DNA of 13,936 bases, taken from contig JBDRGF010000138.1 of the NCBI GenBank assembly GCA_043818055.1, forward strand, positions 1 to 13,936, read 5' to 3'. Shown in pieces: positions 537 through 13,044 of this stretch. How positions within the stretch are numbered: the stretch's first letter is position 1; every line of letters starts with the position of its first letter. The translations under genes and the position numbers were made by a program. Source of the stretch: Pseudomonadota bacterium. GTDB taxonomy: Bacteria > UBA10199 > 2-02-FULL-44-16 > JBDRGF01. Under the pieces are notes generated by a model. The model had not been told where the DNA came from and did no database searches. It saw only the letters and a program-made list of their open reading frames with translations.

Positions 537-608
537 CTGCCCTTCACCCTTGACGGGGGAAGGTGCCCTTGCCATGTCGAATGACGTGGCGCAGGGCGGA
601 TGGGGGTG
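537..608 (+). repeat. GC-rich double-hairpin REP-like element, copy 1 (expanded second loop)
   Basis: ccttcaccc-ttgac-gggggaagg-t-gccc-[tt gccatgtc gaat gacgtggc gca]-gggc-ggatggggg; same layout as 12993-13044. Confidence 0.7.
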
Positions 609-655
609 ATGTTTTTATATGATCATTGACCAATCCGAATCGAATAAAAAATCAC

Positions 656-682
656 GCAACTTACGTTCAATTTAGTCGATAA
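656..682 (+). promoter_or_regulatory. Sigma-28/FliA-like promoter motif
   Basis: GCAAC-N14-GTCGATAA upstream of the propeller gene; -10 resembles FliA consensus GCCGATAA; motif recurs three more times in the window. Confidence 0.6.
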
Positions 683-700
683 ATATTATAGAGGATGCGC

Positions 701-1822
701 ATGAAAAAAATCATAATACTGGCAGGTCTTGTAGTAGCTATGTTTTGCCCTAAGCCATCTGCGGCTGACTTTGTAGTATGGGATTTGCAATCGATATTAA
801 GCGACAAATCAGTTGTTTCGATTGCTACGGGAAAACTTGGAGAACCTGTGCTGATGGGGAATTGGGGGGAGATATCAGATTCAAATCAGGATGTGACATT
901 ATCGGTAGCGTTTATCGATGACTGGAAGAATATAAGCCTTGATCTTCGTGACCTTGTCGATAAATTCAGCGATGAACATATCCCGGAGCCTCTTTATGGA
1001 ATAGTCAGCTCTTTTCCGATTTCGGCAGTAGCAGCTGATGAGAATCGTTTTTATGCAGGGACTTCCGGCGCCTTGCTCTATTCGAACGATGCGGGACAGA
1101 CGTGGCATTTTCTCGATCTTACGCCTGATATCTCTACAAAATCCAATCAGCAGGGAACTCACACAACCTGCAAAAGATTAAAACAAAGAGGAATTGAATC
1201 CGATAAAGCTTTTCAGATGATTAGTCTCAATCGGATCTGTGACCTCGTCATTCTTGGGACCGGACGCGTCTTGATGGCATTCGACAATGGGCTCGTTTAC
1301 AACGATCATATCGACAAACATATAGCGGATCGAACTGATCCGAGATTTCAGTGGAATGGTGTCCCATCCAATGTTGCAAACGAGCTTTTTGGCCGTGTGG
1401 TCAACGATCTTGCAGTGAATAAGAAGACGATTTTTGCAGCGACCGATCAGGGCGTTTGGGAAAGCCTCGATGATGGCACTACGTGGAGAATCATAGGCCT
1501 CGATAGTGAAAATGTTTATACGCTGAATATTGCTCCGGACGGCACGCTCTTTGCCGGAAGTGAAAGAGGCCTTTATTTTTATCGTGATGGGCAGTGGAAA
1601 TTTTTAAAAGCGATCAAAAACATTAATGCTATCGCGGTAAATGGCTCGACGCTTTTTGTAGGTACGGATCAAGGTTTGCTCATCAGTTACGATTCAGGAA
1701 CTAATTTTGATTTAATGACGAATGTGCCTGCCGTATATGTGATCGAATTCGTGGAAGATGGTTACTATCTTGGAACCAGCAAGGGATTTTGGTTTTTGAA
1801 GAAAAGAACTAAGGCGTTGTAG
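701..1822 (+). CDS. Secreted BNR/Asp-box beta-propeller protein
   Basis: Signal peptide MKKIIILAGLVVAMFCPKPSAA; Asp-box motifs YSNDAGQTW, ESLDDGTTW, ISYDSGTNF; repeated FAGS/FVGT/YLGT blade signatures. GAGG at 691-694 favours the ATG at 701 over 695. Confidence 0.8.
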   Translation: MKKIIILAGLVVAMFCPKPSAADFVVWDLQSILSDKSVVSIATGKLGEPVLMGNWGEISDSNQDVTLSVAFIDDWKNISLDLRDLVDKFSDEHIPEPLYGIVSSFPISAVAADENRFYAGTSGALLYSNDAGQTWHFLDLTPDISTKSNQQGTHTTCKRLKQRGIESDKAFQMISLNRICDLVILGTGRVLMAFDNGLVYNDHIDKHIADRTDPRFQWNGVPSNVANELFGRVVNDLAVNKKTIFAATDQGVWESLDDGTTWRIIGLDSENVYTLNIAPDGTLFAGSERGLYFYRDGQWKFLKAIKNINAIAVNGSTLFVGTDQGLLISYDSGTNFDLMTNVPAVYVIEFVEDGYYLGTSKGFWFLKKRTKAL

Positions 1823-1882
1823 TAGAATATAACTCTGCGTTTAAATTTTCACTACATGCTGTTAATCCTGAATGGAAATGAT

Positions 1883-3151
1883 TCAATCGAGCAACGATTC
1901 AAATAATCCCTTCTGAAGTGTCTTATAAAAAAGCTCGTTGTTTGAATAACCAGTCATAGTAGAATATTTTTGGTTTTTTTGCTTCCGGCCGGAAATAATT
2001 AATGGAAGTGCAGAAAATATAATGAATGTCGGAAACAGAAGTCGTTCAATCCATTTAGAATAAAGATGCAGTGGTGTTCTGTGCAGTTTCCACCGCAAGT
2101 CAAAGTGTGAACCTACCGCTTCTATAATATTTACTCTTCCCATTAAAATGCCAATTAGATGTATTAAATGAACGGCATCTTTTCTCACCTCTTTTGTGAT
2201 ATCAACATCATCTTCAATCTTTTTCAAATATTCATTAAGATCTCTTAATTTATTATTACACCATGTGATTGCATCGGGGTGAGAATTTTTAAAGCTATCC
2301 ATTCTCCAGGATCGGTGTTGTAGGATTTTTCTTAGGATATCCTTATTAATACCATCGATAAGCCTCTTGTAGTGTAAGGCATGAAGGGTCTCATGGATAA
2401 TGGCATGCATCTGAGCTTTTTGAGAATAGCATATAGTATTGTGTTTGAATGAATAGAATGCGTAATTTCCTCTTTTAAAAACACTCATTCCACCTGGAAG
2501 ATTGTCAATTACCTTCAAATCCTCAAGCTCTTCAACAAGATTAAATGCGTTGGGTTCATGGTAGCCTAAAAAGTGAAGGAGGTCAGGTTCACTTTTAAGA
2601 AGCATTTCCATTTTATTTAATGCCTGCATAAAGTGGGGATCGGATTCTATCTTCTCTCTTAGCGGCTTTGCATCTTGCAGATGTTCAGTTAAAAAATCAT
2701 CTGATGGACTTTCTATCTCACTTGAAAACGCTCTTCTGTTGAGATAGAAGCTGCCGCCAAATAATGTGATAGCACCAGCCATCAGGCCTAGTCCCGCATC
2801 GATTAACGGAGATGATGTCGGAGCTAGAGCGAATGTTTGGTAAGCAGATGTAATGGCTGTACTTGTAATAAAAGAAGCAAATGATAATTCCCTGTTTTCC
2901 GGGTTCTTATCAAGTAAAGCACCCAGACACAAAATAGGTGAAAACCACTATGCCTTTGCAATTCCCACTATTCCTAATGATGTTGTTACTCCAACTTGTA
3001 TTTTGTGTTTTATGGAAGCCTTAAATAATTGAAAGGAACTAATGGAAGGTGAATAAACAGCAGCCTCCTTTGTAGAGGCTGAATCATTTGTAGCAATCGC
3101 TGGAAAACCGCATGCAGGGCGATATTTTAGTAAGTTCATTCTTATACTCAT
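1883..3151 (-). pseudogene. Membrane protein with HExxH motif interrupted by one in-frame TAG (pseudogene or readthrough)
   Basis: ORFs 2948..3151 and 1883..2932 share a frame and are separated only by TAG at 2950-2948 (IAKA*WFSPILCLG). AGGA and a promoter motif lie upstream of ATG 3151. HETLH at 2395-2381; several hydrophobic segments. Confidence 0.6.
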
Positions 3152-3174
3152 AAAATTGATTTCCTATACCACTA

Positions 3175-3202
3175 TTATCGGCATATCAGGTAATTTTGTT
3201 GC
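3175..3202 (-). promoter_or_regulatory. Sigma-28/FliA-like promoter motif
   Basis: Minus strand GCAAC-N15-GCCGATAA (perfect FliA -10), 23 nt upstream of ATG 3151. Confidence 0.65.
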
Positions 3203-3279
3203 GCCGCGGGGCATATTTTTTAACCATGGAAAAATATCTCTCATCGTGGTATTGTACGACAATAACAAAGGAGGGGGAT

Positions 3280-3582
3280 ATGACGCTTTTTTACGGGATC
3301 ATCTCATTGGTAGTCGCGACTGCATTTCTGGTCTGGGTGAATGAGAGAATTCCATCCGGGATTCAGAAGTTCGCGAAGGTGGTTGGCTGGGTAGCCGTGG
3401 TTTTGAGTGCAGCTATGCTTTTGCACAAGGCCTATTTTTTCTCAACTTCGTGTATGAAAGGGGATTGTGGGTATGGCAAGGGAATGCACAAGATGATGAT
3501 GAAAGGCGATGGCATGATGGGCGGCATGGGCATGGGCAGGATGCCACCACCACCACCTCCTCCATCTCCAGCAGGAAATTAA
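3280..3582 (+). CDS. Small two-TM membrane protein with Cys/Met/Gly-rich and poly-Pro tail
   Basis: Strong SD (aaggaggggg) before ATG 3280; two hydrophobic helices; tail CMKGDCGYGKGMHKMMMKGDGMMGGMGMGRMPPPPPPP. Confidence 0.75.
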   Translation: MTLFYGIISLVVATAFLVWVNERIPSGIQKFAKVVGWVAVVLSAAMLLHKAYFFSTSCMKGDCGYGKGMHKMMMKGDGMMGGMGMGRMPPPPPPPSPAGN

Positions 3583-3594
3583 TCGGTTTTTTAT

Positions 3595-3630
3595 ACAACT
3601 CCGACCTACGAGGTCGGAGTTGTTGTTTTG
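3595..3630 (+). terminator. Intrinsic terminator
   Basis: Perfect 13-bp stem acaactccgacct-acg-aggtcggagttgt followed by tgttttg. Confidence 0.75.
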
Positions 3631-3656
3631 ACAGTAGCCTCACAATCAACTATAGC
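3628..3656 (+). promoter_or_regulatory. Sigma-70-type promoter for gatD (probable leaderless start)
   Basis: TTGACA-17 nt-TATAGC, ending 7 nt before ATG 3664; no SD before that ATG. Confidence 0.55.
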
Positions 3657-3663
3657 ACCCCTC

Positions 3664-5049
3664 ATGGGAGATTTTGATTACAAGGGATATCGCGATTCAG
3701 CGCTAGCGAAATTAAAGGAGTTTGATGCGAAGGTCTGGGATCGTGTAGAGATTGCGACCTGCAAGGGCCCTTTTACAGGGCTTGTTCTCCCCCGCTCTGA
3801 GACTGAGGATGCGTTTCATATCGTCATCAAGATGCCGAGTGGCTATAACACAGGCATCCACGTCGATTCGATAACTAATATAAAAAGGATAGGGCGCAAA
3901 GAGGGACATTACGAGATCCCCCAGAAGGAATTTCCCGTCGATAAAAGTAAACCGAATGTCACGCTCTTGGGAACAGGCGGGACGATCGCCTCGCGCCTCG
4001 ATTACACGACAGGCGCGGTGATACCGGCCTTTTCCCCCGGAGAGCTCTACGGCGCTGTTCCCGAGCTCGCCGACATATGTAACCTCAATACGAAAAAGCT
4101 TTTCGGCGTCTTCTCGGAAAACATGGGACCAACGCAGTGGAAAAAGCTGGCAGAGGAGATAGGCAACGAGATTGAATCGGGCGCCGATGGAATCGTGATT
4201 GGGCACGGCACCGATACTATGCATCATTCATCCGCTATCCTATCATTCATGGTGCAGGACTCACCAGTTCCGATCGTTTTCGTCGGCTCGCAGCGCTCAT
4301 CCGACCGTCCATCATCGGACGCCGCCAGAAATCTTTTGCACGCGACATACACCGCAGCCCATTCGGACATCGCCGAGGTTATGGTCTGCATGTTCGGGCC
4401 AACCTCCGATGATTACGGCCTGCTTCACATGGGCACGCGCGTAAGAAAGATGCATTCGAGCTATCGCTCCACATTTCGCACAATAGGAGAGACCCCGCTG
4501 GCGATGGTCTGGAGTGATCGCATAGTTCCGATAAGGGAGGGATACAAAAAGCGCGACAGGGAAAGAAAGGTGAAGATCGATACGGCGTTTGAGGAGAGGG
4601 TGACGCTTTTATATTACTATCCGAACATGCAGCCGGACATCGTCGATTCGCTTGTTGATAATGGATATAAAGGCATCGTTATCGCAGGCACCGGCCTTGG
4701 CCATGTCAACTCTGCCCTTAATCCAGCGCTAAGAAGGGCTATCGACAATGGCGTCGCTGTAGTGATGACGGTGCAGACGCTATGGGGATACGTCCAGATG
4801 TATGTCTATGACACCGGCCGATATCTTCTCGACCTCGGCGTAATACCGTGCGAAAACATGCTACCAGAGACCGCCTACGCTAAACTCGCATGGGTGCTCG
4901 GTCACACGAACGATCTCGAAAAGGTGAAGAAGATGATGTTGACTCCGATATCATTTGAAATTACAGAACGCGAACCACACAACGGCTATCTCGTCTATCA
5001 GGGTGGGATTCCTGAGGTCGAGCAGTTTTTGGCAACGTATAAGAAATAA
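3664..5049 (+). CDS. gatD: Glu-tRNA(Gln) amidotransferase subunit D (asparaginase-1 fold with GatD N-terminal domain)
   Basis: GatD N-domain (GLVLPR...HIVIKMPSGYNTG), TGGTIASRLDYTTGAV, HGTDT, GSQRSSDRPSSD, RVRKMHSSYRSTF, AGTGLGHV, NMLPETAYAKLAWVLG. Confidence 0.92.
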   Translation: MGDFDYKGYRDSALAKLKEFDAKVWDRVEIATCKGPFTGLVLPRSETEDAFHIVIKMPSGYNTGIHVDSITNIKRIGRKEGHYEIPQKEFPVDKSKPNVTLLGTGGTIASRLDYTTGAVIPAFSPGELYGAVPELADICNLNTKKLFGVFSENMGPTQWKKLAEEIGNEIESGADGIVIGHGTDTMHHSSAILSFMVQDSPVPIVFVGSQRSSDRPSSDAARNLLHATYTAAHSDIAEVMVCMFGPTSDDYGLLHMGTRVRKMHSSYRSTFRTIGETPLAMVWSDRIVPIREGYKKRDRERKVKIDTAFEERVTLLYYYPNMQPDIVDSLVDNGYKGIVIAGTGLGHVNSALNPALRRAIDNGVAVVMTVQTLWGYVQMYVYDTGRYLLDLGVIPCENMLPETAYAKLAWVLGHTNDLEKVKKMMLTPISFEITEREPHNGYLVYQGGIPEVEQFLATYKK

Positions 5050-5081
5050 CCATTTATAATGATACAACGGGAGGAGACAAT

Positions 5082-6326
5082 ATGTTAAATGGTATATCCG
5101 CGAACACCGCATGGCAACATCTCAAGCCATATTCGATACAGATGAGAGATGGAACTCCCTTTCTTTGCGTTCCTCCAGGGATGCACCCAAAACTTGGTAA
5201 CTTGCCATACCTTGGTCTTTCCCTCTCTGGTGATGATAGGGGGCAGTTTGTCATGACGAATCTATCCGATCGCCTTGCTTTTTTGAGAGGAGGGGATGAT
5301 CGAACAGTTGAGGTCAGGCCTTTTTACAGAAACGTATATAATAGTGAAGGGACAAGGCTTGAAACATGCAAATGGAATCAGATCGAACCGGGAACTGTGC
5401 TGACTTGTGGAGCTGTCAAATTTGGCGTGGATTTCGATCCTCGGGAAAATTGGGGAGATTCGTCAAGGCATGTTGATATCGGTTTGAAGTGGAATGATAA
5501 GAAGCTCCCCTTTTCATTAAATATAGGTTCAAGGGCGATTCTCGGAAGTGCTTCTGAGTGTTGTGAGAAGAATGATCAGGCCGTAGTTCTCAGTGGAGAG
5601 GAAATTTTGCCCAATCATGCATCGCTAGAATTTTCGCTTGATGGCACTTTGCAGATCAAATCTCTCACCAAAGGGGCAGCGATTCTCTTAGATGGAAGCG
5701 CGATAAACGACATCCCAGTTCCAGTCGATCTTGCTAGAGGGGCTTCGTTGTTGTTCGGAAAAGAGGCGATGAGGATATATAGTATCGATAGACACTCATT
5801 TACAGAGAATGTTTTAAATGGGTCACTTGAATCGGAAGTCTGGCTGGAAGTTGGGAGGGGTTCGAGATCGAATATGTTCAGATTTTCGCTGCCAGGGGAA
5901 GATGATCAACAATCGATTATCATCGGACGTAAGCTTAAAGAAAATGAGTCAAATCCGGGCGTATATGAAACCTCTGATGACACAGTTTCAAGAGTTCATG
6001 GCTGGTTCTTTGTCAGGGGAGGCAAACTTTGGTATGAGGATCTCGCTTCGCTTAATGGAGCCCAAATGAACGGAAGAGAGGTTATCAGATCACAATTATC
6101 GCCAGGAGATACGTTGCGCCTCGGCGAATCTATAATTGTTAAAGTACAGTCCCAACCGAACGCGAATTTAAGATTCCCCAGCGGTGAAAGTCATGAACTG
6201 AGAAGAGTTACAAGCACATCTGCCGCAATCGCAATCCACGGATTTCTGGCTGCGTTACGAAGTGAAGAAAGGAAAAATTACGGCACATATACAGGGCTGC
6301 ACCCGTTCAAAAAGGGTGAGCAATAG
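5082..6326 (+). CDS. FHA-domain protein, paralogue 1
   Basis: SD ggaggag; canonical FHA at about 5916-6145 (IIGR...VSRVH...EDLASLNG...LSPGDTLRLG); a degenerate FHA-like middle segment (ILGS...ILPNHA). Confidence 0.85.
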   Translation: MLNGISANTAWQHLKPYSIQMRDGTPFLCVPPGMHPKLGNLPYLGLSLSGDDRGQFVMTNLSDRLAFLRGGDDRTVEVRPFYRNVYNSEGTRLETCKWNQIEPGTVLTCGAVKFGVDFDPRENWGDSSRHVDIGLKWNDKKLPFSLNIGSRAILGSASECCEKNDQAVVLSGEEILPNHASLEFSLDGTLQIKSLTKGAAILLDGSAINDIPVPVDLARGASLLFGKEAMRIYSIDRHSFTENVLNGSLESEVWLEVGRGSRSNMFRFSLPGEDDQQSIIIGRKLKENESNPGVYETSDDTVSRVHGWFFVRGGKLWYEDLASLNGAQMNGREVIRSQLSPGDTLRLGESIIVKVQSQPNANLRFPSGESHELRRVTSTSAAIAIHGFLAALRSEERKNYGTYTGLHPFKKGEQ

Positions 6327-6332
6327 CTAGAG

Positions 6333-6359
6333 ATAACTTTTTTCCAATAACAACGATAA
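6333..6359 (+). promoter_or_regulatory. Sigma-28/FliA-like promoter motif (degenerate)
   Basis: ATAAC-N14-AACGATAA, 22 nt upstream of ATG 6382. Confidence 0.45.
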
Positions 6360-6381
6360 TGAGTATACAACAGGAGGAGCT

Positions 6382-7278
6382 ATGACAAAAGCTATTATAT
6401 CGGTCAATCCAAATTGGAGACATATCAATCCACATTCGATATCGACAAGAGATGGTATTCCATTTGTGGAGATATCGAGGGAAATTCATCCAATGCTCGG
6501 CAATATGAATTTCTTAGGATATACCATGGGAGATGCAGATCGCGCTGCCTTTGTCACAAGAGGTTTGAGTGATCGTGTTGCCTTCTTTAGAGGATCTGAA
6601 GATGGTAAAAACGTCCAAGTGTACTCCTTAAATAAACCTATTTTTAACTCTGATGGCAGATTCTTGACCTTGAAGGGTTGGGATGATGTTTCTCCCGGTG
6701 AGATTTTAGAAGTTGGTGGTATGAAGTTTGGTGTAGATTTTGATCCGCGAGAGAATTGGGATCCAAGAACGCATAAGCTCTTTTCAGAAGAGGCCATACT
6801 TGACTCACAAAAAATTCCATTGAGATTGGATGAAAGAGCGCTTTACATGAAGATCGATCAAACGGTCAGAATCGGTGATTCAACAGGAGTTAAAACTCTC
6901 TATAGACATCTTATTTTTGACCAGTCACATAGCGAGAATGCCTTTCTTTTGGCCAGATACAGCGGGGATGTTGCGCAATTTGGAGGTTTTTATACCATCC
7001 CTAATGGAAGTGTCTCACGTGTGCATGCGATGATACTTTTCGGCGCCGCTGGCGTCTTTGTTCAGGATCTCTTTTCGCTCTCAGGCACCAGTGTGAATGA
7101 GGAATTGATATATGAGGCGCAGGTTTTTGAAGATGATACGATCTCCATGCCTTCGGTCAGAATCTCATTTACACATGATCTTCCAAAGGGCGAGGTTGTT
7201 AAATACCCGACAATGGATTTAGCCAGCCTTCGCGTCCATCTCGATACAATCCGGGTTCCAAAAAATCTACCATACTAA
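6382..7278 (+). CDS. FHA-domain protein, paralogue 2
   Basis: SD aggagga; N-terminal ~125 aa aligns by eye with paralogue 1; C-terminal FHA (VSRVHA...QDLFSLSGTSVN...EDDTI). Confidence 0.82.
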   Translation: MTKAIISVNPNWRHINPHSISTRDGIPFVEISREIHPMLGNMNFLGYTMGDADRAAFVTRGLSDRVAFFRGSEDGKNVQVYSLNKPIFNSDGRFLTLKGWDDVSPGEILEVGGMKFGVDFDPRENWDPRTHKLFSEEAILDSQKIPLRLDERALYMKIDQTVRIGDSTGVKTLYRHLIFDQSHSENAFLLARYSGDVAQFGGFYTIPNGSVSRVHAMILFGAAGVFVQDLFSLSGTSVNEELIYEAQVFEDDTISMPSVRISFTHDLPKGEVVKYPTMDLASLRVHLDTIRVPKNLPY

Positions 7279-7296
7279 TTATTATGACAGACCTCC

Positions 7297-7325
7297 TTGT
7301 CAGAGCTTCTAAAATGAGTTAAAGT
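7297..7325 (+). promoter_or_regulatory. Sigma-70-type promoter
   Basis: TTGTCA-17 nt-TAAAGT upstream of ORF 7361. Confidence 0.5.
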
Positions 7326-7360
7326 CTCCTTCAGTTTTATAACAAAAAAAGGGGGGTATT

Positions 7361-7606
7361 ATGAGATTGAGTGTAAAGGGTTTGGGATTGACGTTGGGTA
7401 TTCTCTGGGCGTTTATCGTCCTCTTCATCTGTCTGATGACCAAGTTCGGCTACTATGCAAATGTCTATAATCTTCTGAATGAGTTCTATCTAGGCCTCAT
7501 CACATTGACACCGGTTGGCATGTTGATCAGCGTCGTGATCGGCTTTGTCGATGCCTTCATCTTCGGAATAATTCTCGCCTGGGTATACAACAGATTTGTA
7601 AGCTGA
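7361..7606 (+). CDS. Small two-TM membrane protein resembling a family often annotated as putative holin
   Basis: SD-like ggggggg; pattern GLTLGILW...GFVDAFIFGIILAWVYNRF. The family label is from recall and there is no phage context. Confidence 0.7.
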   Translation: MRLSVKGLGLTLGILWAFIVLFICLMTKFGYYANVYNLLNEFYLGLITLTPVGMLISVVIGFVDAFIFGIILAWVYNRFVS

Positions 7607-7687
7607 AATACGTGAAGCGCAGTTCGCAAGATATATACAATATTTTTTTTACGCTTCACGCTTCACTGGCGGACGTTTCACGTATTT
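7606..7687. repeat. Heptamer-based inverted repeat
   Basis: aaatacgtgaagcg (7606-7619) pairs with cgtttcacgtattt (7674-7687) or with cgcttcacg (7652-7660); units acgcttc x2, acgtttc, acgtatt. Confidence 0.65.
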
Positions 7688-7690
7688 ATC

Positions 7691-8227
7691 ATGATGAGAA
7701 TCATTTTATATATTCTTATCGTGTCATTTATCTCTCTTATTGTAATGGCAGGAGGTCAGATGAAGCTCACTTCAACTGTCTTTGACGACAAGGCCAAGGT
7801 TCCACAGGAATATGTCATGGCGGCCGCCGGTGGGAGTAATATCTCTATTCCACTAGCGTGGGAGCATGCGCCGGAGGGAGTGAAGTTCTTTGCGATTTCA
7901 ATCGTGGACCATCACCCGATGGCGTCAAGGTGGGTGCACTGGCTGGTCATAGATATTCCAGCAAATGTCACCTCGCTCGCCAGAGGCGCATCACAGAAAA
8001 ATATGCCAAAAGGTTCACTGGAGTTGAAAAACTCATTTGGATCGGCAGGCTACGGCGGCCCGCAGCCTCCAAAGGGCAGAGGCGATCACGCCTACGTTAT
8101 CACTATATATGCGCTCAATGCTGATTCCCTCTCGCTTGGCGACTCTGTAACTGAGGCTCAGTTTCTAAAAGCAATAGAAGGTAAAGTGTTGGGATCGGCA
8201 CATATTACGGGATACTATGGGAGATAA
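7691..8227 (+). CDS. YbhB/YbcL family Raf kinase inhibitor-like (PEBP) protein
   Basis: MKLTS start of domain, NISIPLAW, WVHWLVIDIP, NSFGSAGYGGPQPPKG..HAYVITIYAL; hydrophobic N-terminal leader; alternative ATG at 7760. Confidence 0.92.
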   Translation: MMRIILYILIVSFISLIVMAGGQMKLTSTVFDDKAKVPQEYVMAAAGGSNISIPLAWEHAPEGVKFFAISIVDHHPMASRWVHWLVIDIPANVTSLARGASQKNMPKGSLELKNSFGSAGYGGPQPPKGRGDHAYVITIYALNADSLSLGDSVTEAQFLKAIEGKVLGSAHITGYYGR

Positions 8228-8229
8228 AG

Positions 8230-8313
8230 CAATATCCAATTAACAATAATCAATCTTCATTATAGAAATTGTTAATTGGGTATTGAGTATTGGAAATTAT
8301 TTATTGTTAATTT
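8230..8313. repeat. Inverted heptamer array, probable bidirectional terminator between convergent genes
   Basis: caatatc caattaa caataat caatctt cattata, then gaaattg ttaattg ggtattg agtattg gaaatta tttattg ttaattt; 8230-8247 pairs with 8268-8285 (18 bp, one G:U). Confidence 0.75.
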
Positions 8314-9272
8314 TCCGATAGATACATTATCGCCCCCGCAGCTGCTGCATTGTACCATCTTTTTGAAGCGTTGTTGAAAGAGCATTGGAACGTGATCGCT
8401 TCCCCTTTTTTCATGGCGACCCCCTTTGGATCGATGAATGGATTGTTCTCAAGGTTTTTTATGCGATAATTTTCGTCGAGCTCTGCTTGTGCCCGCCAGA
8501 AGGGAATAGGATCGGTATCCTTTGAAATAGCCAGCGTTACGCCATAATCCTGCAAAATTCCGTTAGCCAGAATCAATCGCGACGCGTTCTCGATCCTGAA
8601 GGTCTTAGCCTTTTCAACTATTTCATCCTTTTCAATCTTGATAGGTTTATGTTCACACGGGTCGAGATCGACCATGACGGGTTTTAGATCCTTCATCTTA
8701 ACAAATTCGTTCATCGGCTTTGTGATGAGTTTTAGCTCGAAGGTAACTCCCAAAAATCCCCCTTCGGTTTCATTTTGCAAAACAACCTCCACCTGCAGTG
8801 GATCAGAGGGGAGGAGGGGATAGGCATACCCTAAAGGAAATTCGATCTCGGTCAGCGCGGACGAAGCAATCATGATCGGATTTCCCTTCTTTGCCTCGCT
8901 GCACAGCGGATTTGATTCGTGCTGATTGTAGATGATAGCGCGATGAATGAGCTCTCCGGGGAGCTTTTTGCCTAAGCCATCAACGACAGCAGGTTTAAAT
9001 CCGATCACCCACACAGGTTCTCCCACCTGAAATTTCATCGTGAGCGGTTTATCTAACATCTCTGTCGGATCGGTATTCGGCTTGAGGTCTATAGGACCTA
9101 TATGGAATATGAATTCTTTTAAGTCTGTCCGGACTATTGTCTCCGAATCATCAGAGTTCGAAGGGGAATTGCTGTTATTGAAATCCGGGCTATTAAGGCC
9201 GCCACCGCTCCCTTCGCAGGATGAAAAAAGCAGGATCACAAGCAAAAATGATGTAAGTTTAAGTAATTTCAT
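8307..9272 (-). CDS. Lipoprotein with copper type II monooxygenase-like (PHM/PNGase F fold) two-domain layout
   Basis: Lipobox LFSSC and a Ser/Asn linker; segments IGPIDLKP, WVIGFKP.VVD, LIHRAII, DYG, GEAITF..SFNN follow the PHM-like motif order. Fold assignment is by eye. Confidence 0.65.
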   Translation of the reverse strand: MKLLKLTSFLLVILLFSSCEGSGGGLNSPDFNNSNSPSNSDDSETIVRTDLKEFIFHIGPIDLKPNTDPTEMLDKPLTMKFQVGEPVWVIGFKPAVVDGLGKKLPGELIHRAIIYNQHESNPLCSEAKKGNPIMIASSALTEIEFPLGYAYPLLPSDPLQVEVVLQNETEGGFLGVTFELKLITKPMNEFVKMKDLKPVMVDLDPCEHKPIKIEKDEIVEKAKTFRIENASRLILANGILQDYGVTLAISKDTDPIPFWRAQAELDENYRIKNLENNPFIDPKGVAMKKGEAITFQCSFNNASKRWYNAAAAGAIMYLSEN

Positions 9273-9348
9273 ATCTTTTTATTCTCAATTTTCACCCCAA
9301 AACTCAATGTGCATCGCGGCATATTAAATGATGCAAGGTGTTACCCTA

Positions 9349-9375
9349 TCTTCGGCTGTGAAATGGGAAAGTTGC
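9349..9375 (-). promoter_or_regulatory. Sigma-28/FliA-like promoter motif
   Basis: Minus strand GCAAC-N14-GCCGAAGA upstream of the lipoprotein gene. Confidence 0.55.
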
Positions 9376-9467
9376 TTGTGTGAGGTAGGTTTTTTAAAAA
9401 GGTAAAGATTGCTGTCGACCGGCTTGGGAGATGAATATCTGCCGTTTCCGTAATGTTAACCCCTCCC

Positions 9468-9496
9468 TTGCATTTGATTTCGTACAAGTTTAGAAT
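9468..9496 (+). promoter_or_regulatory. Sigma-70-type promoter for the psd-family gene
   Basis: TTGCAT-17 nt-TAGAAT. Confidence 0.65.
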
Positions 9497-9549
9497 AACG
9501 CTGATTGAGGACACATATTAAAACGGTCTGACCACATAAAGGGGGAAAG

Positions 9550-10683
9550 ATGAGAAATATGACGAGCATCGTGCTGCGGCTGAAAAAGATGATAGATGCA
9601 AAGGAGAAATTTAAAATAGAGCTTGAAAAATGCATTACGGATGCAAACTGGACACCCCCCTATCGGGATACGGCCCTCTCCAATCTGGATGACTTCTATG
9701 AGTACCTGGATAAAATGCTGGTCACCACGCCTGTCGATTCCACATTCAGCGACCTGTTTCATGGACTCTACTTTATTGTCAGCCAGCGGGATAATAAATT
9801 TCAAAATGATCCTAACTTCGCCGAGTTTAAGAATTGGATGATCTTATACACACAGCAGTATGGCGCCTTCTTAAATAGCCCCCAGTCAGCCAACGACCTG
9901 CAGTCCTTTATAGACGACAAGGGCTTTGTGATTGAAAATTTCACGGTGCCGCCTGGCGGTTTTAACAATTTTAATACTTTTTTCTGCAGATACATCAGGC
10001 CCGGCAAGCGCCCCATAGGTACAAAAACTTTCCCCTACGAGAATGCCAGCACTGGTCTTGCCCCAAATCCAAAAGAGGACCGAAACGAGATCCACAAGAA
10101 CATGGCCGATGACAATGTGATCACTGTGCCGGCAGACAGCGTATATAGGGGTTCGTGGAAGATAAGCGAAACAGACACGATCACCGTCTCCAAGGGCAAC
10201 ACCTATAATATAGACACGTTGTTACAGCACAGCAGATATGCGGACAGGTTCAAGAACGGTATATTTACTCACAGCTATCTGACGGTTTTGACTTACCACA
10301 GATACCATACGCCGGTCCGAGGTACCGTTTTAGAGACCAAGGTAATATCGGGGGATGTTTACGCGAGCGTTACCAGAGACGATCAGGGACACCTTGGGGC
10401 TTCCGACGGCACCGGCTATCAGTTCACGCAGGAGCGCGGCCTTCTGGTTATGGACTCGCCAGTGGGTCTGGTTGCCTGTTTGCCGATCGGCATGGATGTC
10501 ATCTCGTCCTGTAATCTCAGCGTCGACGAAGGCGACTACTTGAATAAGGGTGATGAGTTTGGCAATTTCCTCTTCGGCGGTTCCGACATGATAATGCTGT
10601 TCGAGCGGGATGATATCGATATACAGCTGACAGAAATCGGCAAACTGCATAAATTGGGTCAGGTATTTGGCAAAGCTAAGTAG
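9550..10683 (+). CDS. Phosphatidylserine decarboxylase-family pyruvoyl proenzyme
   Basis: FNNFNTFFCR..RPGKRPI, VPADS, YHRYHTPV.G, KGDEFG.FLFGGSD (GS autocleavage site); SD aaggggg. Confidence 0.9.
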   Translation: MRNMTSIVLRLKKMIDAKEKFKIELEKCITDANWTPPYRDTALSNLDDFYEYLDKMLVTTPVDSTFSDLFHGLYFIVSQRDNKFQNDPNFAEFKNWMILYTQQYGAFLNSPQSANDLQSFIDDKGFVIENFTVPPGGFNNFNTFFCRYIRPGKRPIGTKTFPYENASTGLAPNPKEDRNEIHKNMADDNVITVPADSVYRGSWKISETDTITVSKGNTYNIDTLLQHSRYADRFKNGIFTHSYLTVLTYHRYHTPVRGTVLETKVISGDVYASVTRDDQGHLGASDGTGYQFTQERGLLVMDSPVGLVACLPIGMDVISSCNLSVDEGDYLNKGDEFGNFLFGGSDMIMLFERDDIDIQLTEIGKLHKLGQVFGKAK

Positions 10684-10699
10684 ATAATATCTAGGGAAT

Positions 10700-10735
10700 A
10701 AAACAAGCCCTACCTCTTGGTGGGGCTTTGTTTTG
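10700..10735 (+). terminator. Intrinsic terminator
   Basis: aagccctacc-tctt-ggtggggctt stem followed by tgttttg. Confidence 0.7.
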
Positions 10736-10808
10736 TAAACCCGTCACAACCCGTCAGAGCGAGCAAAGCGACTCTCTCAAAGCAGACAAAAAAATCTTGC
10801 TATACCCC

Positions 10809-10838
10809 TTGACTCTGGGTGAGCTGACACTATATATA
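10809..10838 (+). promoter_or_regulatory. groESL promoter (sigma-70-type)
   Basis: TTGACT at 10809-10814 and TATATATA at 10831-10838, directly upstream of CIRCE. Confidence 0.55.
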
Positions 10839-10852
10839 GGCAACCTGAGAGG

Positions 10853-10879
10853 TTAGCACTCTTTGGGTCTGAGTGCTAA
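10853..10879. promoter_or_regulatory. CIRCE element (HrcA operator)
   Basis: TTAGCACTC-tttgggtct-GAGTGCTAA, a perfect consensus with 9-nt spacer upstream of groES. Confidence 0.97.
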
Positions 10880-10928
10880 TAGATTGAAAAATAATGTTTT
10901 TTAATAGTTAACCAAAGGAGGTAGAAGT

Positions 10929-11228
10929 ATGAGTAACCTAAACTTTCGTCCGTTGCAGGACAGGGTGCTGGTAAAGAGGCTCGATGGAGAGGAAAAATCC
11001 GCAGGTGGTATCATCATTCCCGATGCTGCTAAGGAAAAACCGCAGCAGGGTGAGGTTGTAGCTGTCGGCAGCGGCAGAGTTACTGAGGATGGAAAGGTTC
11101 GTCCTCTGGATCTCAAACAAGGGGATAAGATCCTCTTCGGAAAATATTCCGGAACAGAGGTGAAATTCAGCGGTACAGAGTATTTGATCATGCGCGAGGA
11201 TGATATCCTTGGCGTCGTAACAGCTTAA
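10929..11228 (+). CDS. groES: Co-chaperonin GroES
   Basis: [49 protein letters not shown] aaggaggt. Confidence 0.99.
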
Positions 11229-11245
11229 ATAAAAGGAGGAAAAGT

Positions 11246-12895
11246 ATGTCAGCAAAACAGATCGCATTTAGTATAGAAGCAAGGGACAAGATTAAAAAAG
11301 GCGTTGATATTTTAGCCAACGCAGTAAAAGTCACATTAGGCCCAAGGGGGCGCAATGTGGTTTTGGACAGGTCTTATGGCAGTCCGACCATCACAAAAGA
11401 TGGCGTTACGGTTGCCAAGGATGTAGAGCTCTCAGACAAGTTTGAAAACATGGGCGCTCAGATGGTGAAAGAGGTCGCTTCGAAGACCTCCGATGTCGCA
11501 GGCGACGGAACGACAACCGCGACAGTATTAGCGCAGCATATTTATTCCGAAGGTGCCAAGCTCGTAGCAGCCGGCCACAATCCGATGTCGCTCAAAAGGG
11601 GAATCGAGAAAGCAGTTGAAGCCATCGTCGAAGAGTTGAAGAATATTTCCAAGCCGACGAAGGACAAAAAGGAGATCGCGCAGGTTGGTACGATCTCAGC
11701 CAACAACGATGAAACGATTGGCAACACGATTGCCGAAGCGATGGAAAAGGTTGGCAAAGAAGGTGTCATCACAGTTGAAGAGGCCAAGAGCATGGATACC
11801 ACGCTGGATGTTGTCGAAGGTATGCAGTTCGATCGCGGCTATCTCTCTCCATATTTCGTGACCGATCCGGAGAGGATGCAAGCGACACTGAACGAGCCTT
11901 ATATCCTCATCAATGAGAAGAAGGTTTCGAGCATGAAGGATCTCTTGCCCTTGTTGGAACAGGTAGCAAAGTCAGGAAGAGGACTTCTGATCATCGCCGA
12001 AGATGTCGATGGCGAAGCTTTGGCAACACTTGTTGTCAATAAACTCCGTGGCACATTGCATGTAGCAGCAGTGAAGGCCCCGGGCTTTGGCGATCGCAGA
12101 AAGGCTATGCTCGAGGATATCGCAACCCTCACCGGCGGAAAGTTGATCGCTGAGGAACTCGGACTTAAGTTAGAGAGCATTACGCTGAACGATCTCGGAA
12201 GCGCAAAGCGCGTCACTATTGATAAAGACAACACGACCATCGTCGATGGCGCCGGAACAAAGGCAGACATCGAAGGTCGCATCAAGCAGATCAGGGCTCA
12301 GGTCGAAGAGACCACATCCGATTACGATCGCGAAAAGTTGCAGGAGAGACTCGCGAAGTTGGTCGGCGGCGTCGCCGTCATCAACGTCGGAGCAGCAACT
12401 GAGACCGAGATGAAGGAAAAGAAAGCCAGAGTTGAAGATGCACTCCACGCGACACGCGCTGCAGTCGAAGAGGGCGTTGTTCCGGGAGGAGGCGTTGCTC
12501 TGATTCGTTCTTCCATCGCGCTTGATAAAATTAAGCTAAACGATGAAGAGATGGACGGTGTCAGGATTGTAAGACGCGCCATCGAAGCTCCATGTCATTT
12601 CATCGCGCATAACGCGGGATGGGAAGGAGCTATCGTCGTAGATAAAGTAAAATCAGGAAAGGGCGCGGAGGGTTTCAATGCCCAGACATGCAAATATGAA
12701 GATCTCATGGCTGCCGGCGTTATGGATCCGACCAAGGTCGTTCGTAGCGCATTGCAGAACGCAGCCTCTGTCGCCGGCCTTATGATCACGACCGAAGCTA
12801 TGATCGCCGAGAAGCCAGATGACAAGAAGGATATGCCCCCGATGCCCGGTGGCGGCGGTATGGGTGGAATGGGCGGCATGGGTGGAATGTACTGA
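11246..12895 (+). CDS. groEL: Chaperonin GroEL
   Basis: [32 protein letters not shown], and a GGM-repeat tail. Confidence 0.99.
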
Positions 12896-12900
12896 TAAAG

Positions 12901-12935
12901 CAGTTGTTAGTTTTCAGTGCTTAGTGCATAGTGAA
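12901..12935. repeat. Heptamer tandem array (cagttgt tagtttt cagtgct tagtgca tagtgaa)
   Basis: Five yagt-initiated 7-nt units starting 5 nt after the groEL stop. Confidence 0.65.
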
Positions 12936-12943
12936 ATGCAAGG

Positions 12944-12977
12944 AAGGGCGGGTATAAAACCCCGCCCTTTTATTTTG
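12944..12977 (+). terminator. groESL intrinsic terminator
   Basis: aagggcggg-tataaaac-cccgccctt followed by ttattttg. Confidence 0.85.
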
Positions 12978-12992
12978 TGCTTTCCGCTCTGC

Positions 12993-13044
12993 TCTGCCCC
13001 CCTTGTGGGGGAAGATGCCCGAAGGGCAGAAGGGGGGGGGTGGG
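12993..13044 (+). repeat. GC-rich double-hairpin REP-like element, copy 2
   Basis: tctgcccccc-ttgt-gggggaaga-tgccc-gaa-gggca-gaaggggggggg. Confidence 0.7.

Follow-up and report, generated by a model that had tools for sequence, protein, structure and literature searches.

Results

The gatD locus

The window analysed here, the whole stretch of 13,936 nucleotides, is a single contig (C138) of a bacterial genome, G000, that is 93.6% complete and 2.7% contaminated. On its forward strand, an open reading frame from the ATG at 3664 to the TAA at 5049 encodes a complete GatD of 461 amino acids, recognisable from profile searches, its N-terminal and asparaginase domains, and its catalytic motifs. The protein scores 523.6 bits against the GatD model NF003217 (cut-off 310) and 515.9 bits against TIGR02153 (cut-off 324), the GatD_N domain (Pfam PF18195) lies at residues 23-74 (E 5e-13), and the motif SQRSSDRPSSD begins at residue 209, so the initial annotation was right to describe a full GatD with its N-terminal domain and this motif. 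The top matches in the PDB are 1ZQ1_A (E 1e-124) and the GatD chain 2D6F_A (E 1e-115), with E 1e-43 at best for plain asparaginases. A plain type I asparaginase is ruled out, because the corresponding model, TIGR00519, scores 386.4, below both GatD models, and because GatD_N is present. Judged by motif position, Thr107, Thr183, Asp184, and Lys262 are the catalytic Thr and the Thr-Lys-Asp triad, which is described in passages of PMC2330236. The GGT, HGTD, and RKMHS motifs are conserved at 95% or more in 99 bacterial GatD rows, and the protein has a conserved C-terminal extension in common with these rows.

Neither neighbour of gatD is gatE, as had been noted from the start: a 128-aa ORF without a family match lies upstream, and two FHA proteins are encoded downstream. 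Directly after the upstream ORF, a 13-pair hairpin with a T-rich tail (3595..3623, forward strand) is a likely terminator, in which case gatD would be transcribed on its own; with 2 terminator-like sites found in the window and 1.5 expected from shuffles, the hairpin is no more than suggestive. Two further features served as synteny markers. One is a lipoprotein-like ORF of 321 aa on the reverse strand (8307..9272), which has no match in Pfam or NCBIfam, and the other is the block of CIRCE, groES, and groEL on the forward strand (10853..12895). The CIRCE named in the initial annotation is a perfect copy at 10853-10879, ahead of groES and groEL, judged by what we take to be the CIRCE pattern, and 0 of 200 shuffles gave one. 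The names groES and groEL, and gyrB for the 3' end at 1-435, are those that we presume from the sequence.

Several other features of the window are worth recording. The tandem FHA-domain ORFs at 5082-7278 (414 and 298 aa) each begin with a domain of about 120 aa that is 46% identical between them and has no Pfam match, and neither ORF has a match among 100 gatD loci of relatives. A further FHA ORF lies directly 3' of gatE on contig C60, and the genome has 15 FHA matches in all. An 81-aa membrane ORF at 7361-7606 scores 65.1 bits against a holin model, just below the cut-off of 70, and no other phage genes were recognised near it. Public contigs connect position 569 to 13007, which suggests a short repeat common to the regions downstream of gyrB (450-620) and groEL (~13000-13040).

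gatD is native to the genome

Of 93 genomes in the class, 23 carry gatD; 17 of these belong to the order, which is represented by 22 genomes. G000, G006, and G007 have the arrangement gatD, lipoprotein, groES, groEL in common, and a homologue of the lipoprotein at 8307-9272 (39-46% identity) adjoins gatD in G006, G007, G008, and G011 (loci L213, L222, L230, and L232); the FHA genes and the others lying between the synteny markers of the window have no match in these four loci. At 0.61, the GC3 of gatD is high for G000, yet similar to that of groEL (0.57), gluRS (0.58), and gatB (0.59). Taken together, synteny with relatives, distribution in the class, and GC3 establish that gatD is native to G000 and inherited within the order, and they rule out a chimeric contig or a recent import. 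Contigs from four public runs, belonging to several studies, contain identical pieces inside and around gatD, none of them spanning the window; with these and the synteny, the concern raised at first that the assembly might be chimeric finds no sign in its favour. An RNA library also contains identical gatD pieces, and it covers 28 of 30 bins, hence it possibly represents DNA.

A tail-less GatE is encoded on another contig

The initial annotation proposed two explanations for the missing neighbour, a gatE elsewhere in the genome or a GatD repurposed with another partner. The genome-wide profile search bears out the first: gatE lies on contig C60 (16444-18105, reverse strand). The genome also has gatCAB, on contig C97, and GlnRS was not found. 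The 553-aa GatE passes both GatE cut-offs (519.4 against 456 for NF003107). G000 has a single gatD and a single gatE, and GatD is its only asparaginase-family gene. Within the class, gatE occurs in 22 genomes, every one of them with gatD, and thus in 22 of 23 gatD genomes; among the best loci of relatives in representative genomes, gatE lies within 5 kb of gatD in 69 of 80, upstream and on the same strand in 68. A foreign partner for GatD is ruled out by these co-occurrences, and the second explanation falls with it. Within the order, gatD and gatE are often divergent neighbours, and in G000 they are separated. G026 (L226; 98% complete) has gatD without a detected gatE, and there the gene adjoins an M42 aminopeptidase, as in G048.

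The GatE of G000 ends after its helical domain at a true stop that follows residue 553, and lacks the C-terminal tail of about 80 residues. No frameshifted or split tail was found in other frames, and no match to GatB_Yqey (PF02637) or YqeY (PF09424) in the protein. The tail is lost in all 14 aligned GatE of this lineage, which are 553-610 aa long with tail columns 15% filled; GatE in 65 other bacterial rows measures 622-682 aa. An AlphaFold model of the G000 protein (pLDDT 95.2) has its final helix ending at residue 552, and its best structural matches are 1ZQ1_C and 2D6F. A stand-alone YqeY gene is present in G000 on contig C159; none was found among 68 flanking ORFs from loci of the class.

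By sequence, both gatD and gatE of G000 are intact genes with conserved catalytic residues. The Mg-binding His18, Glu160, and Glu187 of GatE (His15, Glu157, and Glu184 in 2D6F) are kept in all 79 bacterial GatE, in which Arg121, Lys122, and Arg225 are also invariant, and the insertion domain carries two invariant residues seen in bacteria only, Cys344 and Asn350. Features associated with tRNA recognition have fared differently. Gln240, whose position we take to be tied to tRNA recognition, is kept by 83 of 86 rows of the archaeal type and 29 of 29 of the Asgard type, and of the bacterial rows 2 of 79 have Gln there. Among archaeal-type rows, 48 of 115 contain the tail motif GxxAxG, which occurs in 0 of 79 bacterial ones. 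In the catalytic region and the tail, identity averages 0.74 and 0.22 in the other bacteria, and 0.77 and 0.49 in the Asgard type. The alignments thus indicate decay of the tRNA-recognition parts of the protein and strong constraint on the kinase core. The decay is not uniform in the tail-less lineage, where the basic acceptor-stem loop (Arg218, Arg225, and Gln226) and Arg517 are kept in 14 of 14 proteins; with these residues and a free YqeY, tRNA binding by the tail-less GatE would still be possible. According to passages of PMC2811023, the tail of GatB is essential for tRNA binding and that of GatE is placed at the D-loop. We dropped an earlier idea that 'bacterial-specific' active-site motifs act as a substrate switch: the N-terminal RKxYLDGS-type and neighbouring motifs are common to bacterial and tail-keeping Asgard GatE, so no residue indicates an Asp pocket.

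GatDE is not the main route to Gln-tRNA

G000 has an intact gatCAB on C97 and one GluRS. Both of its tRNA-Gln genes have the pair U1-A72. The same pair is present in 29 of 29 tRNA-Gln from other GatD genomes, read in the first 30 loci of a pattern search in which 2 of 31 matches were not tRNAs, and A1-U72, the pair that archaeal GatDE recognises according to passages of PMC2330236, occurs in none of the 31 read (the 2 of G000 and those of the first 30 loci). Whether tRNA-Gln carries G37 or A37 does not track GatDE. No tRNA-Asn was found in the assembly, probably a gap. The second tRNA-Lys(TTT) of the genome (G000:C9:7414-7487) has an unusual C1-G72 acceptor stem.

For a wider view, we assembled a panel of 70 genomes: 22 gatE genomes of the class and 48 gatD genomes of other phyla, the latter from 50 of the best 80 loci, with G093 and G094 duplicating G006 and G012 and counted once. 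GlnRS or GatB is present in 68 of the 70; only G006 (83% complete) and G116 lack both. This count, like all the others given here, is drawn from related and partly incomplete genomes that are not independent of one another. Within the class, gatB stands alone in 11 genomes and GlnRS in 7; 3 genomes have both, and G006 has neither. In the other phyla, GlnRS is present in 45 of 48 and gatB in 22 of 48, with neither only in G116, and over the whole panel gatB is absent from 34 genomes. The pattern is sharpest in the tail-less lineage (n=18), where 11 genomes have gatB without GlnRS, 6 have GlnRS without gatB, 1 has neither, and none has both. GatCAB is thus lost where GlnRS is present and kept where it is absent, with GatDE throughout, from which we infer that GatDE cannot alone carry Gln-tRNA synthesis. 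GatDE coexists with GatCAB in G000 and is not its main Gln-tRNA route. The archaeal Gln-tRNA pathway of the initial annotation therefore does not stand as a main route, given the GatCAB, the U1-A72 pair, and a panel in which GatDE does not replace GlnRS or GatCAB.

Asparagine and glutamine supply

AsnRS, AsnA (on C133), and glutamine synthetase are present in G000, where the search found no AsnB-family gene. AsnRS accompanies GatD(E) in 65 of 70 panel genomes (19 of 22 in the class and 46 of 48 in the other phyla), and in the class it is found in 19 of 22 genomes with gatE versus 21 of 71 without. The anticodon loop of AspRS, read in 22 of 27 fetched loci, has Leu or Met in 19 of 19 GatDE genomes, and His, presumably an imperfect marker, only in the AsnRS-less G034. 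A literature search found no publication backing the role of Gln240 or the His marker.

In the class, 9 of 23 genomes with gatD have AsnA, compared with 0 of 43 tested that lack gatD; since AsnA accompanies gatD, an exchange of GatDE for AsnA is ruled out in the class. In the other phyla, 29 of 48 gatD genomes contain AsnB-family genes, many of them possibly unrelated paralogues. Eight gatD genomes (G108, G116, G117, G119, G120, G125, G135, and G142) have AsnRS without gatB, AsnA, or an AsnB-family gene, and all five tested genomes that have AsnRS without GatDE, AsnA, or AsnB keep gatB. The class has 14 AsnRS genomes without GatDE, AsnA, or AsnB, so no asparagine synthetase is needed in them. 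Of 11 GatDE genomes, 10 have glutamine synthetase (G000 and 9 of 10 further ones), as do 5 of 5 others, which rules out that GatDE replaces it.

A GatDE clade across bacterial phyla

At least 591 relatives of gatD occur in representative genomes of many phyla. The best 80 of these have 67-78% identity across phyla; among the names in their titles are Ignavibacteria, Aminicenantes, Zixibacteria, Bacteroidales, Caldithrix, Fermentibacteria, Myxococcota, Planctomycetaceae, and Chloroflexota. No conserved third gene was found beside gatED, neither in 129 scanned (of 142) flanking ORFs from other phyla nor in 68 from the class; several of the former encode peptidases or enzymes of amino-acid catabolism, and one is glnA. 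Databases already label such proteins GatE in bacterial records. Our full-text search found no publication on a bacterial GatDE, and a prior mention is possible. Passages of PMC2811023, PMC2330236, and PMC9499178 (2008 to 2022) describe GatDE as confined to archaea, and one in PMC2943598 calls the GatDE transamidosome archaeal-specific. Two surveys of bacterial amide pathways leave GatDE unscored: it has 0 occurrences in the text of PMC3927822 and appears in that of PMC4206432 in the reference list only.

When GatB serves as the outgroup, the GatE tree unites 26 bacterial-type rows, 13 of them assigned by motif and tree position, with one Thermoplasmata-labelled protein in a single clade (SH-aLRT 100). 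The nearest archaeal branches in the free tree are Asgard-labelled GatE (SH-aLRT 89). An AU test that left out the protein P0402 and one long-branch GatB did not reject archaeal monophyly (p=0.92), and the constrained tree had a higher likelihood than the free tree. The free tree suggests an Asgard donor for the clade, and the AU test fits both this and an ancient sister branch. P0402, the Thermoplasmata-labelled GatE, is encoded on a 5.16-Mb contig and sits inside the bacterial clade, which would reflect either a transfer back into an archaeon or a wrong label on the genome. The Asgard-labelled GatE P0153, P0169, and P0184 and their relatives resemble GatB in having Tyr in the RKxY motif and fall outside the clade of typical archaeal GatE; they may differ in substrate range.

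Discussion

The genes described here encode a GatDE by homology, yet three defining features of the archaeal Glu-tRNA(Gln) amidotransferase are missing from G000: the GXXAXGX tail, an A1-U72 tRNA-Gln, and a position as sole route to Gln-tRNA(Gln). Compared with the archaeal complexes of Methanothermobacter thermautotrophicus (2D6F) and Pyrococcus abyssi (1ZQ1), the same N-terminal domain and asparaginase core are found in GatD, and the same cradle, insertion, and helical domains in GatE, with the Mg-binding His/Glu/Glu kept. The differences are a bacterial host, split loci for gatD and gatE, a GatE without its YqeY-like tail and with Pro in place of Gln240, a U1-A72 tRNA-Gln, and coexistence with GatCAB or GlnRS. 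The Asgard-labelled GatE (P0153, P0169, and P0184, under the NCBI names Heimdallarchaeota, Thorarchaeota, and Odinarchaeota) have the same RKxYLDGS-type motifs, and unlike the GatE of the tail-less lineage they retain Gln240, the full tail, and a GAD insert that Pfam detects. Bacterial GatCAB, encoded separately on C97, contains a paralogous kinase subunit, GatB, that likewise phosphorylates and then amidates, and differs in its ammonia-releasing subunit, the amidase GatA.

We tentatively suggest that GatDE functions as a tRNA-independent, glutamine-dependent asparagine synthetase, a possibility that we place first among the candidates while holding it loosely. GatD would pair with the tail-less GatE encoded on C60 in a GatDE-type amidotransferase and release ammonia, presumably from glutamine; a tunnel would pass the ammonia to GatE, which would phosphorylate free aspartate, the putative acceptor, with ATP and then amidate it independently of tRNA. 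When ammonia is scarce, the free asparagine could serve AsnRS in addition to that from the ammonia-dependent AsnA. The suggestion is favoured by the presence of GlnRS or GatB in 68 of 70 genomes and the U1-A72 tRNA-Gln, which speak against a main role in making Gln-tRNA, and by the decayed tRNA-recognition marks. It would fit the AsnRS, needed to use free asparagine, in 65 of 70 genomes together with an AspRS loop lacking His, and it is also favoured by the eight gatD genomes without gatB, AsnA, or AsnB, set beside the comparators without GatDE that all keep gatB. Counting against it, AsnA and GatCAB are both present in G000, so an extra source of asparagine is not needed there, AsnA accompanies gatD in the class, AsnB-family genes occur in 29 of 48 genomes of other phyla, and 14 AsnRS genomes of the class have none of these genes. 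The acceptor-stem loop and Arg517 kept in the tail-less lineage, the free YqeY, and the N-terminal motifs common to bacterial and Asgard GatE also weigh against it. There is also the risk of a futile cycle, for which the asparaginase-fold GatD would have to reject asparagine as a donor; according to passages of PMC2330236, archaeal GatDE uses asparagine and glutamine about equally. Under this reading AsnB would be the functional analogue, with the same net transfer of an amide from glutamine to free aspartate. The folds of AsnB and GatDE are unrelated, and GatE activates through an acyl-phosphate and AsnB through an adenylate. Family searches with GatD and GatE gave no match to AsnA or AsnB, so the likeness to asparagine synthetases would be an analogy of function only.

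The main rival, to our minds nearly as likely as the free-asparagine synthetase and possible to a similar, slightly lesser extent, is an auxiliary Glu-tRNA(Gln) amidotransferase that has adapted to U1-A72 and serves as backup or repair, with asparagine as donor when glutamine is short. It would require the least change from the archaeal enzyme, given the kinase residues, insertion domain, acceptor loop, and Arg517 that are kept; Glu-tRNA(Gln) must be formed in G000, which has one GluRS and no GlnRS; and the positive association with AsnA and AsnRS fits an asparagine-fuelled enzyme. Set against this, the complex is never sufficient alone, GlnRS is widespread among the other-phylum genomes, and the tail, which GatB needs to bind tRNA and which in GatE is placed at the D-loop according to passages of PMC2811023, is lost in the tail-less lineage.

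An unlikely variant has GatDE amidate Asp-tRNA(Asn) and so replace GatCAB in its asparagine role. Genomes without gatB, eight of which also lack an AsnA or AsnB-family gene, count in its favour, as do the bacterial-only Cys344 and Asn350 in the insertion domain. The AspRS loop without its presumed, imperfect His marker speaks against this variant, as do the loss of the tail in the tail-less lineage and the retention of AsnRS, which the route would make dispensable. Moreover, the insertion of archaeal GatE excludes ND-AspRS according to passages of PMC2943598.

Quite unlikely, too, is a tRNA-independent transfer in which free Glu, Asn, and ATP yield Gln and Asp. It would retain the preference of GatE for Glu and that of GatD for Asn, in a genome where GatD is the only asparaginase-family gene, and the neighbours of gatD in relatives include peptidases, a dicarboxylate symporter (G012), and the single glnA. 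There is no gap for such an enzyme to fill, however, as glutamine synthetase is present in G000 and in nearly all GatDE genomes tested, and peptidase neighbours are common in such genomes. It is very unlikely that GatDE amidates a macromolecule other than tRNA or a metabolite, such as a peptide, a cofactor, or an envelope precursor: decayed tRNA marks around a strongly constrained core would suit such a target, but the flanking ORFs of the class and of other phyla contain no conserved third gene beside gatED.

A recently imported archaeal Gln-tRNA route, or a chimeric contig, can be dismissed as highly improbable, for although both proteins score above the archaeal GatD and GatE cut-offs and GlnRS was not found, GatCAB is intact, tRNA-Gln is U1-A72, and gatD shows an order-wide distribution, shared gene order, a GC3 like that of groEL, gluRS, and gatB, and identical pieces in the runs of several studies. 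What survives of the initial proposal of horizontal acquisition is a possible deep origin from an Asgard donor, with an ancient sister branch as the alternative, both compatible with the AU test; the recency does not, in view of a widespread bacterial clade with 67-78% identity and inheritance within the order.

For the many-phyla GatDE as a whole, we consider it a fair-sized possibility, if short of an even chance, that these complexes are tRNA-free amino-acid amidotransferases, likely a third kind of asparagine synthetase, derived from an Asgard-type donor or from the last common ancestor. Such an enzyme would spend one phosphoanhydride bond (ATP to ADP).

A conserved GatDE clade across bacterial phyla alters the inventory in which GatDE is an archaeal signature, and again raises the question whether GatDE dates from the last common ancestor or was transferred from Asgard archaea. 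The naturally tail-less GatE offers a direct test case for a kinase working without tRNA. If free asparagine synthesis is indeed its function, the tail-less lineage would be the cleanest natural example of a tRNA-free GatDE, and 'asparagine auxotroph' calls in uncultured bacteria may change.
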